A DNA stretch of 12,919 bases from Nanobdellota archaeon (GCA_020697515.1 JAIXNB010000004.1:1-12919); one strand, 5' to 3'. Positions 557 through 12,677 are shown, numbered from the stretch's first letter. The notes: generated by a model from the letters alone, not told the origin. Numbers and translations are program-made.

Positions 557-690
557 TAAAATTTTAAATATCCTGACTCATAGAATTTATTTTTAGTACC
601 TCACATCATCAGCAGTTGTACATTTTGTAGAGTTCTGTAATAAAAGTAAAATGAGATTATATAGGAGGTTGTGATATAATATACTAACTC

Positions 691-2712: not shown

Positions 2713-2979
2713 TCTTATTTTTCAAAACCTACCACAACCAAAAACTTTTCTTTAGAGTATAGGAAGAAATTAGATAGACCTTGGAAAATGTTCGAAAAAA
2801 ATTGATATTCAAATTCTTCATTGTCTTACGAATCTTGAGAACGAAAAAAGCATCCTATCTGAAATATTACTTAAATTTAGAAACTAATTTTGAACCCGGG
2901 CCGGGGGGGATTTGAACCCCCGACCTGCGGGTTAAGAGCTTCGGCGGCCACCCCCGCTAATTTTTAAATACCATTAAAA

Positions 2980-2987
2980 TATTTAAA
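2980..2987 (-). promoter_or_regulatory. Intronic TATA-like TTTAAATA at -30..-23 relative to the first G of the 3' GC arm (2957)
   Basis: The octamer and spacing are the same as at the promoters of ORF 320 and the PRC-barrel gene, and it is preceded by the purine-rich AAGAAGG. A chance occurrence in AT-rich DNA cannot be excluded. Confidence 0.35.
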
Positions 2988-3054
2988 CCTTCTTATTTGA
3001 GATATAAGCGAATAGTCTAGAGAGGCTTATTAGGATATAAACTAATAAATTTAT

Positions 3055-3059
3055 AAAAA
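3055..3059 (-). terminator. T5 tract immediately after the 5' exon and its GC clamp, inside the tRNA intron
   Basis: The minus strand reads CCCCCGCGG-TTTTT-AT. An oligo-T run after a GC-rich stretch is the archaeal terminator signal. Confidence 0.4.
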
Positions 3060-3138
3060 CCGCGGGGGTGGTCACCGCCGCTCTGCCAGGCTGAGCTACC
3101 GGCCCATTAAAGAAGATACAAAATTCTAGAAACTAAAC

Positions 3139-3146
3139 TATTTAAA
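3139..3146 (-). promoter_or_regulatory. TATA box TTTAAATA at -41..-34 relative to tRNA nucleotide 1
   Basis: The consensus octamer lies upstream of the tRNA. The spacing predicts a 5' leader of roughly 8-12 nt rather than a leaderless tRNA. Confidence 0.5.
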
Positions 3147-3284
3147 TATTACCTATCTGCTATTATCTTGTTTTCCTCTGACCTAGAAGGACTCATCGAC
3201 TCGGTTAGGGTAATGCTAAAAGTACTAATTAGGTGATCAAAGGGAGAACTTAGTGAGTATTTTAAGATTCAGCAGTAATTAAAT

Positions 3285-3290
3285 AAAAAA
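3285..3290 (-). terminator. T6 tract 3 nt downstream of the FKBP gene stop
   Basis: The minus strand reads TAA-TCT-TTTTT-AT directly after the stop at 3293-3295. Confidence 0.45.
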
Positions 3291-3292
3291 GA

Positions 3293-3862
3293 TTATAGAT
3301 TATAGTTCTTTAACTCATCTATAATTCTCCTTAATAGGTCTTTATATTCTTGCGGTAACTCTTTTCCATTTATACTAATTTTTATATTTTTATTATCTAT
3401 ATTTACAGTTATATTTTCCCTATCCACTCCAAATAAGAATGATAGTAATCCCTTTATTTTATCTTTTAGATCTTTTACTTCCCTTATAACTTCTACTTCA
3501 TATATAAGATCTTTTCCTGCAACTGGGTGATTAAAGTCTACTATTACTCTACCGCCAGATATACTTAAGATTATCCCTTTTCTCCCATCTACATTTACAA
3601 TCAGCCCGGGAGAAGGTCTTATACCTCTCCTAATGAATTCTGATAATGGGATTATCTTTATCAGTTCATCTTTTCTTTCACCAAACGGTTTGACGAACTC
3701 AAACCTATAGTGTTTACCGGGTTCTACATCTTGCAATGCTTTCTCTAAAAAAGTATACAACAATCCTTTACCAACAGGTACTACTATTGGCCTCTCAGAG
3801 TAATCAAATATCTGATTGGTTTCTTTGATGTATGCAATGTACCTTAACTCTAGAAATCGCAT
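3293..3862 (-). CDS. FKBP-type peptidyl-prolyl cis-trans isomerase (SlyD-like, with insert-in-flap domain)
   Basis: Diagnostic segments are VVPVGKGLLYTFLEKAL, FGERKDELIKIIPLSEF and GGRVIVDFNHPVAGKDLIYEVEVIREV; NHPLAGK-x-L-x-F-x-V is the family signature. I place the start at the second Met (3862) rather than the track start (3898). ATATAAAG at 3884-3891 then lies at -29..-22 as for other genes, and the 12 extra residues (MYHIKFCPTVYL) would cover that promoter. Confidence 0.85.
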   Translation of the reverse strand: MRFLELRYIAYIKETNQIFDYSERPIVVPVGKGLLYTFLEKALQDVEPGKHYRFEFVKPFGERKDELIKIIPLSEFIRRGIRPSPGLIVNVDGRKGIILSISGGRVIVDFNHPVAGKDLIYEVEVIREVKDLKDKIKGLLSFLFGVDRENITVNIDNKNIKISINGKELPQEYKDLLRRIIDELKNYNL

Positions 3863-9769: not shown

Positions 9770-11305
9770 TTGTTATTATTACAAGTGTGGTTAGAAAGAC
9801 CTGAAATACATTGGAATGCGCTAGATGTCTTAGCCCACCAAATAGTGGGGTTAACTATAGATTTTGGAGAAGTTGAAATTGATAAAGTATGGGAGACAAT
9901 AAAGAGGAGTTATGTATATAAAGATCTCTCTTATGGGGAGTTTTTAGAAGTTATAGAGTTTTTAGATTCTATCAGATTGATTAAGTTTGATAAAGAAAAG
10001 AACAAAATAACTAAAACAAGGAAAGGACACTTTTATTATATTGAGAACCTCTCTATGATTCCTGATGAAAAATCATATGATGTAGTGGATATAACCACTA
10101 AGATACGAATAGGAATTTTGCATGAAGAGTTCATAGCAAAATACGGTAATCCTGGTACTGTATTCATTTTGAGAGGATTTCCTTGGAAAATTGAGAAAGT
10201 TGAAAGAAACAAAGTTTTTGTATCTCTCTCCAAAGATTTTGAGAGCGCTATCCCATCTTGGGAGGGAGAACTATTACCAGTTCCATTTGAAATTGCTCAA
10301 GAATCCCAAAAAATAAAAGCAGAGTTAATAAATAAACTAGAAGATCTAAAGGAGCAGAAACTATATTTTATTCCTGATCCAAATTTGATTATTTTAGAGA
10401 GGTATAAAGATTGGTTCATAATCCATGCACCTTTTGGATCTAAAACAAATGACACGTTAGCCAGAATTATTGCATATATTATCTCTAGAGATTATGGCAT
10501 TGTAGTTGGTATAAGAACCGACCCATATAGGATATTGCTTAAAGCAGGGTATATTAATTTAAAAACTATCAAGGAAGTTTTAGAGAATCTCCCAGATGAA
10601 TTTGAGAATATGCTAGAAAAAGCAATAAAAAACACAGATTTATTCTTATGGAGATTTACTCATGTTGCTAAAAGGTTTGGGGTGATAAAAAAAGATGCAG
10701 ACTACTCTAAAAGTACCTTAAGAAGGATAGTGGAGGAGTTAATTGATACACCAGTATATAAGGAAACTATAAATGAAATATTCATCGAAAAGATGGATAT
10801 TCCCAACGCAAAGAAAGTTATAAGGAGGATAAAGGAAGGAAAAATAAAAGTTAAAATAATTAATAAAGAAAGACCCTCACCTTTAGCAATACTAGGATTA
10901 GAGCAAGTCGTATCTGATGTAATGTTATCTGATAAATGGAGAGAAATTTTAAGATTAGTTAAGGAAAGACTGGAAAACACTGAATTATATCTAGTATGTA
11001 TGAACTGTAAATCTATTTATAAGATTAAAGTAAAGGAATGGAATGAAAATTTTAGATGTAATAAGTGCGGTGGTGTATATTTTGGCGTTTCAAAAGGGTC
11101 AAAGTTTGATGATCAAACATTGGGTGTCACTGCAGATCTATTAAAATACTTCGGCAGGAAATTCCTATTAACTTATGCAGGTAAAGGAGTGAGCTATATT
11201 TCAGCTATAAGAATATTAAAAAGAGAATACAAGAATGAAGAGGAATTATTGAGGTATATCATTGAGGAGGAGAAAAGATTTTTTAAGATCAGAAAATATA
11301 TCTGA
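9770..11305 (+). CDS. C-terminal half of an Lhr-type (large helicase-related) helicase: winged-helix / DEAD-associated domain, domain 4 and a C-terminal Cys4 zinc ribbon. No helicase core is present.
   Basis: The segments NALDVLAHQIVG, SMIPDEKSYDVV, IGILHEEFI...FILRGFPWKIEKV and IPSWEGELLPVP align by eye with the Lhr region that follows motif VI (E. coli Lhr has NPLDVLAQQTVA, GTIPDRGMYSV, VGELDEEMV...WRIQQI and LPFWRGEG). A CxxC...CxxC motif sits at CMNCKS...CNKCGG. The track start is a TTG, the frame is open from 9731, and the first in-frame ATG is about 95 codons in. Confidence 0.75.
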   Translation: MLLLQVWLERPEIHWNALDVLAHQIVGLTIDFGEVEIDKVWETIKRSYVYKDLSYGEFLEVIEFLDSIRLIKFDKEKNKITKTRKGHFYYIENLSMIPDEKSYDVVDITTKIRIGILHEEFIAKYGNPGTVFILRGFPWKIEKVERNKVFVSLSKDFESAIPSWEGELLPVPFEIAQESQKIKAELINKLEDLKEQKLYFIPDPNLIILERYKDWFIIHAPFGSKTNDTLARIIAYIISRDYGIVVGIRTDPYRILLKAGYINLKTIKEVLENLPDEFENMLEKAIKNTDLFLWRFTHVAKRFGVIKKDADYSKSTLRRIVEELIDTPVYKETINEIFIEKMDIPNAKKVIRRIKEGKIKVKIINKERPSPLAILGLEQVVSDVMLSDKWREILRLVKERLENTELYLVCMNCKSIYKIKVKEWNENFRCNKCGGVYFGVSKGSKFDDQTLGVTADLLKYFGRKFLLTYAGKGVSYISAIRILKREYKNEEELLRYIIEEEKRFFKIRKYI

Positions 11306-11306
11306 G

Positions 11307-12677
11307 ATGTATTCTTTGGTCAGATATTTCAAAAACATTTTTAACGAAGAGGTATCAAGGTATTTTTTAATTTTCTTATTAGCATTTGTACCCCAATTAA
11401 TTATTATATTCACCGAATCTCCCATCTTGCTGTGGGAGGAGAATATACATTTAGCTACTGCTAAAAAATTCATTGAAGCTGATAATTATTCTGAAGGTTT
11501 CCAATTTTCAATATTGGAATGGATATTAGCATCATTAATTGTTATATTTGGAGATAACATAACTATAATTAAAATAGTTCTAATTCTCATATATTCCATT
11601 TCTGTAATATTTTTGTTTAAAATCTTTGAAGAATACTATAAGGATTCCTGGAAGAATAGTCTTTTTACCTTTTTTTATGTTGTTAATGGAATAAATCTGT
11701 TTTGGGCTAGTAGGATATGTTCGGATGTACTTGGGGCATCTTTTTTGATATTGTCATTATATTTTTATTATAGGTACTACTATAAACGAGAAGATAAAGA
11801 TCTTGTTTGCTCTACATTTTTTGGAGTGTTATCATTTTTAGCAAAGTTGTATTACGGGCTTTGGCTAGTTATATTGTTAATGACTTTAGAAAATAGAGTA
11901 AAAGTTAGATTTTTAATGTATTTATTGATATTTGTTTTTCCTTGGCTCTTATATAATATTATATATTATGAGAGTCCTTTACGGGTTTTAATAAACCAAT
12001 ATAATATAACCTTCTCCTGGCAACATTCAGAATCCATATTAAGGTTCATAAACAACTTGTTGGTATATATAGGTTTTATAACGGTATCCCTATTACTTTA
12101 TACAAAAATAAATGCTGTTGAGAGACCTATATATTTTTATACTTTAATTTTATTGGTCTATTTTACAGTCTTCGTAGAATTTAATAACCCTAGACACTTT
12201 ATAGCAATCCTACCAACTCTCATAATTCTTGCTAGGGCAACTGTTGACAGAATCCCTGGAACTTTACTAATTCTTCTTTTGGCTTATACATTCTCAGCAG
12301 GACAGTCTGCTTTAAAAGGAATAAATGACATAATTCAATATAGATTTTGTTGGGATGGAACAGATATAATATCATTTGCAATAAACTATCTTAGAAATCA
12401 CAATGCTTCTGTTGTTCTAAGCAATTGTTGTTGGATATGGATAAGAAATACCTTAGGAATAGAATCCTACGCATTATGGTCAGAAAATGTTTCATACCTT
12501 ATACAATTATATAAACCCGATTATATAGTGTATAGTCCGAATTACGGGATATTACTAAATTATAGTTTTAAAAATTTAGAAGAAGTAGTGGAATATGAAG
12601 ATGTCTGCGGATTAAAGGTGATAATTTACAGCCGGAAACCGCTCTCCCCTCAAAATTATTTAGAAAATAAACAATAA
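11307..12677 (+). CDS. Polytopic membrane protein, probably a GT-C-fold glycosyltransferase (GT39/ArnT/PMT_2-like)
   Basis: It has at least 10 hydrophobic segments, an acidic motif in the first predicted loop (LLWEENIHLATAKKF, compare the D/E-E motif of GT-C enzymes), and a soluble C-terminal domain of about 100 aa. I place the start at the ATG at 11307, 1 nt after the helicase stop, rather than at the track's TTG at 11262. The functional call is by architecture only. Confidence 0.55.
   Translation: MYSLVRYFKNIFNEEVSRYFLIFLLAFVPQLIIIFTESPILLWEENIHLATAKKFIEADNYSEGFQFSILEWILASLIVIFGDNITIIKIVLILIYSISVIFLFKIFEEYYKDSWKNSLFTFFYVVNGINLFWASRICSDVLGASFLILSLYFYYRYYYKREDKDLVCSTFFGVLSFLAKLYYGLWLVILLMTLENRVKVRFLMYLLIFVFPWLLYNIIYYESPLRVLINQYNITFSWQHSESILRFINNLLVYIGFITVSLLLYTKINAVERPIYFYTLILLVYFTVFVEFNNPRHFIAILPTLIILARATVDRIPGTLLILLLAYTFSAGQSALKGINDIIQYRFCWDGTDIISFAINYLRNHNASVVLSNCCWIWIRNTLGIESYALWSENVSYLIQLYKPDYIVYSPNYGILLNYSFKNLEEVVEYEDVCGLKVIIYSRKPLSPQNYLENKQ

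Follow-up and report, generated by a model that had tools for sequence, protein, structure and literature searches.

Is the sequence that interrupts a tRNA-Lys(CUU) gene in a nanoarchaeal genome a simple intron, or is it the spacer between two adjacent half-genes? The gene lies on the minus strand at 3105..2897 of the window (the whole 12,919-nt stretch of DNA analysed here); between tRNA positions 30 and 31, an insert of 135 nt separates a 5' exon of 31 nt from a 3' exon of 43 nt. Position 30/31 is a listed non-canonical site of archaeal tRNA introns (PMC4090602), and it is also the position at which the halves of tRNA-Lys(CUU), split in Nanoarchaeum equitans and in two Staphylothermus species, are joined (PMC3218864). 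This published split site had gone unmentioned in the preliminary description of the window. A literature search found no report of this locus, and a full-text search of the literature for the exon sequence returned nothing relevant. The N. equitans split tRNA-Lys(CUU) was reportedly described by Randau and co-workers in 2005, and introns bounded by non-canonically placed bulge-helix-bulge (BHB) motifs in archaeal tRNA genes are said to be treated by Marck and Grosjean in 2003 and by Sugahara and co-workers in 2008.

The window is part of the JGI metagenome contig Ga0180410_1000110, and the host is a thermophilic nanoarchaeon. The FKBP-like protein encoded beside the tRNA gene is 100% identical to a protein from an NCBI metagenome-assembled genome (MAG) labelled Candidatus Nanopusillus sp. 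The nearest RadA proteins among the matches listed belong to Nanopusillaceae, Nanobdella and other Nanoarchaeota, with one close MAG labelled Woesearchaeota; the RadA of N. equitans is not among the 120 RadA matches listed. Gene order in the region is L15e, RadA, PRC-barrel protein, the tRNA gene, FKBP-like protein, FtsZ, Spt5, L11, L1 and L10. The source samples, of vent or hot-spring origin, are JGI 3300013798 and ENA ERZ23486385, ERZ23486682 and ERZ27236680. The same insert is present at the same locus in five assemblies made independently, one from JGI, two from ENA and two of them NCBI MAGs, and it is therefore not an assembly artefact. In two of the five the insert is 134 nt long, the sole difference being a single-base deletion in its AT-rich centre.

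Two repeats were seen around the gene. A 20-nt direct repeat, 80% identical, flanks it (2868-2887 and 3117-3136); we estimate that about one such match per 700 nt would arise by chance at this base composition, and the repeat was not used to support any claim. The two ends of the gene also carry an inverted repeat of 13 nt (2708-2720 and 3285-3297), which may bear on the inversion of the gene relative to L105 and L003. A scan of viral contigs for the 3' exon, as a possible attP, gave no matches.

The interrupted gene is composed as follows.

3075..3105, minus strand: 5' exon, 31 nt, tRNA positions 1-30 (D loop of 9 nt), containing the acceptor strand, D arm, G26 and the first four anticodon-stem bases; sequence GGGCCGGTAGCTCAGCCTGGCAGAGCGGCGG
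2940..3074, minus strand: intervening sequence, 135 nt, between positions 30 and 31
2940..2945, minus strand: GCCG, which pairs with C25-C28, plus the AA of the 3' bulge
2897..2939, minus strand: 3' exon, 43 nt, tRNA positions 31-73, containing G31, the loop CUCUUAA, stem, variable loop, T arm, acceptor strand and discriminator G; sequence GCTCTTAACCCGCAGGTCGGGGGTTCAAATCCCCCCCGGCCCG

The anticodon CUU (2936-2934) lies in the 3' exon, and CCA is not encoded. When the exons are joined in silico, ARAGORN identifies the resulting 74-mer as tRNA-Lys(CUU) with Watson-Crick pairs throughout its stems; the anticodon arm has the stem GCGGG/CCCGC and the loop CUCUUAA, including U33. The unspliced gene was missed both by a default ARAGORN run on the window and by an Rfam scan of the window at the gathering threshold. 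Run in intron mode, a check suggested in the preliminary description, ARAGORN does recover tRNA-Lys(CUU) and gives its intron as 135 nt, but because the program allows only loop positions it sets the boundary at 31/32, at the cost of a U.C mismatch.

Fixed at the canonical position 37/38 (option -if), ARAGORN outputs a different tRNA, a tRNA-Gly(ACC) with a 120-nt intron. This candidate has the loop UGACCAC with G at position 33, an anticodon beginning with A34 and an over-long variable region, and it was rejected. It is also contradicted by three kinds of orthologue, intronless, with a canonical 12-nt intron and with a 36-nt intron at 30/31, all of which are tRNA-Lys(CUU); a tRNA-Gly at this locus is hardly credible. 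The earlier contention that a 37/38 reading fails is borne out, and the ARAGORN outcomes therefore show the case made for 30/31 to be correct.

The junction was also tested by comparison with orthologues. In L084-86 (FKBP-like protein 65% identical) and L107 (60%), the FKBP gene is followed 27-36 nt downstream by an intronless tRNA-Lys(CUU) gene, oriented as it is in the window, and the sequences equivalent to exon 1 and exon 2 are directly abutted. The window differs from these genes by one mismatch per exon, in the D loop and the T loop, and the 3' trailer is conserved. Together with the ARAGORN cloverleaf of the 74-mer, the abutted exons confirm a tRNA-Lys(CUU) gene with a 135-nt insert at 30/31, and all the coordinates and pairings given in the preliminary description are present in the sequence.

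Other relatives carry introns. In L003 (RadA 85%), the tRNA gene occupies the same intergenic gap on the opposite strand and has a 12-nt intron at the canonical position 37/38; its spliced product has the same anticodon arm and differs from the predicted tRNA of the window at 2 positions. In L105 (RadA 91%), which comes from the same samples, the gene is again on the other strand and has an identical 31-nt 5' exon, which is also identical in L093-L097. The L105 intron, TGGCTGCTCTAGAAGCTAGAGGAGGTGGCCGCCGAA, is 36 nt long, lies exactly at 30/31 and has neither a T5 run nor a box A. Its last 16 nt match the window insert at 15 of 16 positions, and the two inserts are therefore homologous. A 33-nt intron at 30/31 of tRNA-Lys(CUU) is present in L083, which is from an unrelated archaeon of about 50% GC. 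L083 was the one locus recovered when metagenomes were scanned with a 3'-exon pattern excluding intact genes; a metagenome scan with the exact 5' exon gave 0 matches. In the distant Nanoarchaeota L099-L104, the RadA-PRC pair is conserved and tRNA-Lys is not adjacent to it.

The insert is bounded by a BHB motif, of which positions G22-G30 of the 5' exon (3083-3075) form one strand. Helix h pairs G22A23G24 (3083-3081) with C32U33C34 (2938-2936). The 3' bulge consists of A2941, A2940 and G2939, with the predicted cut between A2940 and G2939. The central helix, H, pairs C25GGC28 (3080-3077) with GCCG (2945-2942) over 4 bp, and the 5' bulge consists of G3076, G3075 and U3074, with the predicted cut after G3075. 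Helix h' opens with G3073-C2946, continues with an A.C mismatch and then has ten pairs, ending at C3062-G2957. There are thus two 3-nt bulges with a 4-bp helix between them and a helix on either flank, and the predicted cuts give the observed junction. Each predicted cut separates bulge nucleotides 2 and 3, which is where canonical BHB substrates are cleaved. The description of the motif as a canonical 3-4-3 BHB that predicts these exact cuts stands, both from the pairing in the window and from its retention in two other 30/31 introns; the outer helix of 11 bp plus one A.C mismatch is likewise present, the A.C being the second pair of h'. The fold of the pre-tRNA is well below that of shuffled controls (z = -5.3).

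A competing register with the helix GGCGG/CCGCC and the bulges UGA and GAA (3-5-3), to which the preliminary description had drawn attention, does exist and is the more stable in the model. In ViennaRNA nearest-neighbour calculations its advantage is 7.2 kcal/mol at 37 C and 5.5 kcal/mol at 85 C; when the 37 C fold is left unconstrained, yet another register, a third one, is optimal. The canonical register is not the preferred free-RNA fold in the thermodynamic model, and thermodynamics alone therefore does not pick the productive fold. The preference of the free RNA is not in practice a defining requirement of a BHB; the enzyme chooses the motif.

To compare the three introns at 30/31 (window, L105 and L083), their BHB cores were aligned after substituting an AAAA linker for each interior. 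In this alignment 94.9% of cells are standard pairs, while slid registers all reach <=50%. Three h' pairs have changed on both sides among the three introns, and the central helix is kept in L083 through a change from G-C to G.U (the partner is GCUG, not GCCG). The 3-5-3 register is impossible in L083, as read from its sequence. Conservation favours the 3-4-3 register, an argument for its being the functional one despite its energetic handicap. The locus almost certainly encodes a tRNA-Lys that is spliced at 30/31 through this BHB.

Archaeal EndA recognises the BHB motif rather than its position and acts independently of the mature domain. It had been stated that an intron at this position requires a heteromeric or three-unit endonuclease, but this is overstated, as the motif is a strict hBHBh' bar one A.C mismatch and subunit type contributes least to specificity, the specificity loops mattering more (Hirata et al., 2018; PMC5829648). 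Alpha4 enzymes with an L3 loop in DPANN archaea also accompany disrupted tRNA genes; N. equitans has an (alpha-beta)2 enzyme, and the types found in DPANN are varied (PMC5829648).

An insertion may also simply have destroyed the gene, with another genomic copy supplying the tRNA. Only about 15 kb of the genome was examined, and the gene is inverted relative to L105 and L003; inversion between such close relatives shows the locus to be prone to rearrangement, and rearrangement is also what would separate the halves of a gene. Against this, each exon is intact and departs from its counterpart in the intronless orthologues at a single loop nucleotide, and a precise 3-4-3 BHB with a clamp complementary at 11 of 12 positions is not expected from random insertion. 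The structure is stable across the five assemblies. In addition, nanoarchaeal genomes are tiny and typically have one gene per tRNA; that of N. acidilobi has 43 tRNAs (PMC4935971). Inactivation is considered very improbable.

The intact gene with its conserved motif leaves the nature of the insert to be considered. The insert is GC-rich at both ends, and its interior is about 20% GC. From 5' to 3' its elements are U (base three in the 5' bulge), GACCACCCCCGC, GG, TTTTT, about 67 nt of AT-rich sequence, TTTAAATA, 22 nt, GCGGGGGUGGCC, GCCG and AA. The elements relevant to transcription and pairing, in and around the insert, are these.

3139..3146, minus strand: upstream box A/TATA-like element TTTAAATA, 33 nt before mature G1
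3062..3073, minus strand: 5' GC-clamp strand (helix h'), GACCACCCCCGC, found as an inverted repeat
3055..3059, minus strand: T5 run, 2 nt past the 5' clamp strand, candidate terminator of a 5' half
2980..2987, minus strand: internal box A/TATA-like element TTTAAATA, exactly 22 nt before G2957
2946..2957, minus strand: 3' GC-clamp strand, GCGGGGGUGGCC, starting at G2957
2844..2849, minus strand: T6 run lying 47 nt beyond the 3' end of the tRNA, which may terminate the gene or a 3' half

The 12-bp clamp has 11 Watson-Crick pairs and corresponds to the GC-rich complements of about 12-14 nt that lie beside the BHB in split tRNA genes. The T5 run is the only one on the sense strand of the locus or pre-tRNA. 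Elsewhere in the window, sense T5 runs occur 1-6 nt past the stop codons of the RadA, PRC, FKBP, L1 and L10 genes, and they are absent from 11 of the 16 gene bodies.

The TTTAAA of the internal box lies at -30..-25 relative to G2957. Two ATGs in the window are preceded by TTTAAATA at exactly the same distance of 22 nt (290-297 before 320, and 2428-2435 before 2458), a spacing rule drawn from only two genes of the same window. From the upstream box, transcription is predicted to start near 3116-3117, giving a leader of about 11 nt; a homologous upstream region accompanies the tRNA gene in L105 and L003. In N. equitans, RNA-seq has shown that transcription from the promoters of tRNA genes and tRNA half-genes starts at a purine, with box A (TTTAAA) about 26 nt upstream (PMC3491384). 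Estimates from base composition, which are post hoc and indicative only, put the chance of a box at this spacing (+/-1 nt) at about 0.002 and of a T5 run <=3 nt from the clamp at about 0.05; a TTTAAATA-like octamer anywhere in the interior of about 80% A+T is expected in about 6% of cases by composition.

If the gene were transcribed as two halves, the predicted 5' half would be 46-51 nt long after RNase P processing and the predicted 3' half 61 nt (an 18-nt leader plus the 43-nt exon). Cofolding of the predicted halves gives ddG values of -25 kcal/mol (37 C) and -16 kcal/mol (90 C). The insert has no RUGAUGA, no CUGA box and no ORF, in agreement with the earlier statement that it lacks an ORF and a C/D box. 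Its description as a long intron of 135 nt holds for the length; the GC clamp, oligo-T and box A, which together resemble the anatomy of adjacent split halves, had been missed. Rfam searches at E<=10 gave T-arm fragments only, and relaxed blastn searches for the source of the AT-rich interior of about 100 nt, against the window and eleven related loci, gave low-complexity noise only.

This anatomy can be compared with two known systems of split tRNA genes. The first is the split tRNA-Lys(CUU) found in N. equitans, Staphylothermus marinus and Staphylothermus hellenicus, which is the same isoacceptor with the same 30/31 junction; the host of the window and N. equitans belong to the same phylum. 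The 3' part is 43 nt in the window, in N. equitans and in Staphylothermus, and the 5' part is 31 nt in the window and Staphylothermus and 32 nt in N. equitans. In published descriptions, a perfect GC-rich duplex continues from the canonical hBHBh' of these split genes (PMC3218864), and the hBHBh' of the window, like those of N. equitans and Staphylothermus, leads into a GC-rich duplex of 12-13 bp. Their precursor and mature sizes, about 44-48/31-32 nt for one half and about 60-65/43 nt for the other (PMC3218864), match the half sizes predicted for the window. The arrangement differs. In the window the parts are adjacent, in order, on one strand and 135 nt apart, whereas the halves lie about 70 kb apart in N. 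equitans, on opposite strands near positions 308,963 (+) and 380,370 (-) of AE017199, and about 4.5 kb apart in Staphylothermus. Adjacency on one strand means that a cis precursor is possible in the window. The terrestrial nanoarchaea N. acidilobi and Nst1 have been reported to be without split tRNAs (PMC4935971).

The second system is Aeropyrum pernix tRNA-Asp(GUC), in which a 121-nt 'intron' contains a promoter and forms the spacer between adjacent halves, each transcribed separately; its GC stem has 14 bp (PMC3218864). It has been proposed as an intermediate between cis and trans arrangements (Chan et al., 2011; PMC3218864). As in the window, the 'intron' exceeds 100 nt, contains no C/D sRNA and has a canonical BHB followed by a GC stem of 12-14 bp. 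The A. pernix 'intron' has a same-strand promoter placed so as to give a short GC-rich leader, and the insert of the window has a candidate promoter in a like position. The two differ in the tRNA concerned and in position (37/38 in A. pernix, 30/31 in the window), and A. pernix belongs to the Thermoproteota. The A. pernix case is backed by northern and RT-PCR data, the window by sequence analysis.

The insert may alternatively be an ordinary cis intron. A 209-nt precursor would be transcribed from the upstream promoter and cut at the BHB, releasing a 135-nt intron that would probably be circularised, and the T5 run and TTTAAATA would be by-products of AT-rich filler with no role. The insert shares with other non-canonical archaeal introns its BHB boundaries and a position outside 37/38; L105 and L083 provide plain examples at 30/31, and the 36-nt intron of the close relative L105 lies at the same site and has a homologous 3' end. 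AT-rich DNA readily yields TATA-like words: TTTAAATA occurs 9 times in the window against 4.6 expected, and 13 of 200 shuffles reach 9. Of these nine copies, eight lie outside coding sequence. Some read-through precursor is detectable even in A. pernix (PMC3218864).

Several features fit a cis intron poorly. Archaeal tRNA introns were reported in 2011 to range from 11 to 129 nt, and the A. pernix tRNA-Asp was the one long intron without a C/D sRNA among them (PMC3218864); at 135 nt the window insert lies beyond that range, and the sole comparable case proved to be split. Typical introns (median 15 nt) have a short h', whereas the clamp in the window, of 12 bp and GC-rich, is of the sort usual in split halves and is not needed by a cis intron; the window has in addition terminator- and promoter-like signals. 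A box at the exact nanoarchaeal promoter distance, together with a T5 run 2 nt past the clamp, has a rough joint probability by chance that we infer to be about 1e-4. Conversely, the AT-rich interior and the two-gene spacing rule are reasons for reserve about a split gene, and the lower modelled stability of the canonical register and the A.C mismatch beside the first h' pair weigh against the reading as a whole. A plain cis intron retains an appreciable likelihood, if one clearly short of even. The clamp, the T5 run and the spacing of TTTAAATA make separate transcription of the halves plausible, as in A. pernix tRNA-Asp, and the chance that this takes place to a meaningful extent is judged to be about even.

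Both routes would lead to the same tRNA. On the pattern of established archaeal tRNA splicing, the endonuclease would cut after G3075 and after A2940 (GG/U and AA/G), and an RtcB-type ligase would join the exons into the 74-nt tRNA. Anatomy and precedent suggest that much transcription may stop at the T5 run directly past the 5' clamp strand and restart at G2957, the first base of the 3' clamp strand, from the internal box A. RNase P would trim the leader of about 11 nt from the 5' half, and the clamp would hold the half-transcripts (about 46-51 nt and 61 nt) together by pairing, for splicing in trans. Transcription past the T5 run would yield a cis precursor, with cleavage at this same motif. 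T5 is a weak, leaky terminator in archaea, and the cis precursor may dominate. The locus is probably a functional tRNA-Lys(CUU) gene interrupted at 30/31 by an insert able to yield either two adjacent half-transcripts or a cis precursor. Both are of known kinds, the non-canonical BHB intron and the adjacent split tRNA, and no new mechanism is involved.

Relatives of the window suggest an evolutionary order, from intronless gene to short intron, to the arrangement in the window and finally to dispersed halves. The series would start with an intronless ancestral gene, as in L084 and L107, which would have acquired a short hairpin intron at 30/31, as in L105. The clamp would then have been strengthened to 12 bp and about 100 nt of terminator-plus-promoter DNA placed in the hairpin loop, as in the window, before the halves were dispersed by rearrangement, as in N. 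equitans. The locus looks like a stage between the short cis intron of L105 and the separated halves of N. equitans, with part of this series directly visible in the relatives. That it is a living intermediate from tRNA intron to split gene, already transcribed as two halves in the phylum of N. equitans, is put forward more tentatively, at somewhat less than an even chance.

Standard tRNA finders miss this gene or misplace its intron, and tRNA-Lys(CUU) therefore appears to be 'missing' in such genomes. The value of the locus is comparative: within the phylum of N. equitans, and with graded relatives, it is the cis-linked equivalent of that organism's split tRNA-Lys(CUU). Whether split tRNA genes are ancient relics or recent derivatives of intron-containing genes has been debated since 2005. 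To our knowledge, earlier evidence of late splitting comes from the Desulfurococcales and not from the N. equitans lineage. As the nearest relatives of the window show both intronless and short-intron states, the question of split origin becomes testable there. If the proposed series is correct, it would provide direct comparative evidence that in N. equitans the splitting of tRNA-Lys(CUU) is a derived state ('split-late') rather than a survival from primordial half-genes.

The tRNA-Lys(CUU) gene and its promoter-proximal region lie on opposite strands in the window (2713-3292) and in two close relatives, L105 (1853-1986; RadA 91%) and L003 (3080-3252; RadA 85%). Two other relatives, L084 and L107, carry an intronless copy of the gene beside an FKBP gene. 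The orientations are as follows.

Orientation of the tRNA-Lys(CUU) gene
Window: minus strand
L105 and L003: plus strand
L084 and L107: co-oriented with the FKBP gene

In addition, the tRNA gene is flanked by far longer intergenic gaps in the window (185 and 187 nt) than in L003 (approximately 45 nt).

A 13-nt inverted repeat (2708-2720, TATAATCTTATTT; 3285-3297, AAAAAAGATTATA; 92% complementary) brackets the segment whose orientation differs between relatives, with its two copies at the 3' ends of PRC and FKBP, which are convergent genes. This repeat may be no more than a pair of similar terminators, or else may be the substrate of the inversion. A 20-nt direct repeat, with 16 of 20 positions identical, lies closer in on either side of the tRNA gene, one copy 9 nt past its 3' end (2868-2887) and the other 11 nt ahead of its 5' end (3117-3136); we estimate that chance would yield about one match of this kind in this AT-rich stretch of 700 nt.

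Three contigs, L105 and two others that reach this locus, end within it.

Contig ends within the tRNA-Lys(CUU) locus
L002: 3 nt into the insert
L098: exon nucleotide 20
L105: nucleotide 5 of the 3' exon

L002 and L105 both derive from one ENA sample. These breaks probably arose because the assembly graph was split by two co-occurring nanoarchaeal genomes with identical exons, differing in insert and in orientation.

The neighbouring FKBP-like protein (3293-3862, minus strand) and its closest relatives match only the FKBP26 insert-in-flap domain (PF22199). More distant homologues match FKBP_C (PF00254), the catalytic domain, as well. In this lineage, the isomerase domain may have diverged or been lost. 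Elsewhere in the window, a 506-aa ORF (9785-11305, plus strand) encodes only the C-terminal Lhr domains (WHD_Lhr and DEAD_assoc), without the helicase core, a pattern that fits previously known cases of split protein genes in Nanoarchaeota. This ORF shares 44 nt with the one that follows it (11262-12677, PMT_2-like). A sense TTTAAATA box (563-570, plus strand), located 7 nt past the stop codon of a 78-aa ORF and 148 nt ahead of the L15e start, has no gene at promoter distance in the window annotation. It could belong to a small RNA missing from the annotation or to a long leader.

The position of the insert, 30/31, recurs outside this group of relatives. A metagenome contig (Ga0209635_10024241; L083, 1581-1690), from an unrelated archaeon with a GC content of about 50% and an encoded CCA, contains a 33-nt bulge-helix-bulge intron at 30/31 of tRNA-Lys(CUU). 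Such recurrence may reflect the fact that tRNA-Lys(CUU) has the exon-side helix of the splicing motif in place from the outset, in G22-G24 and C32-C34.
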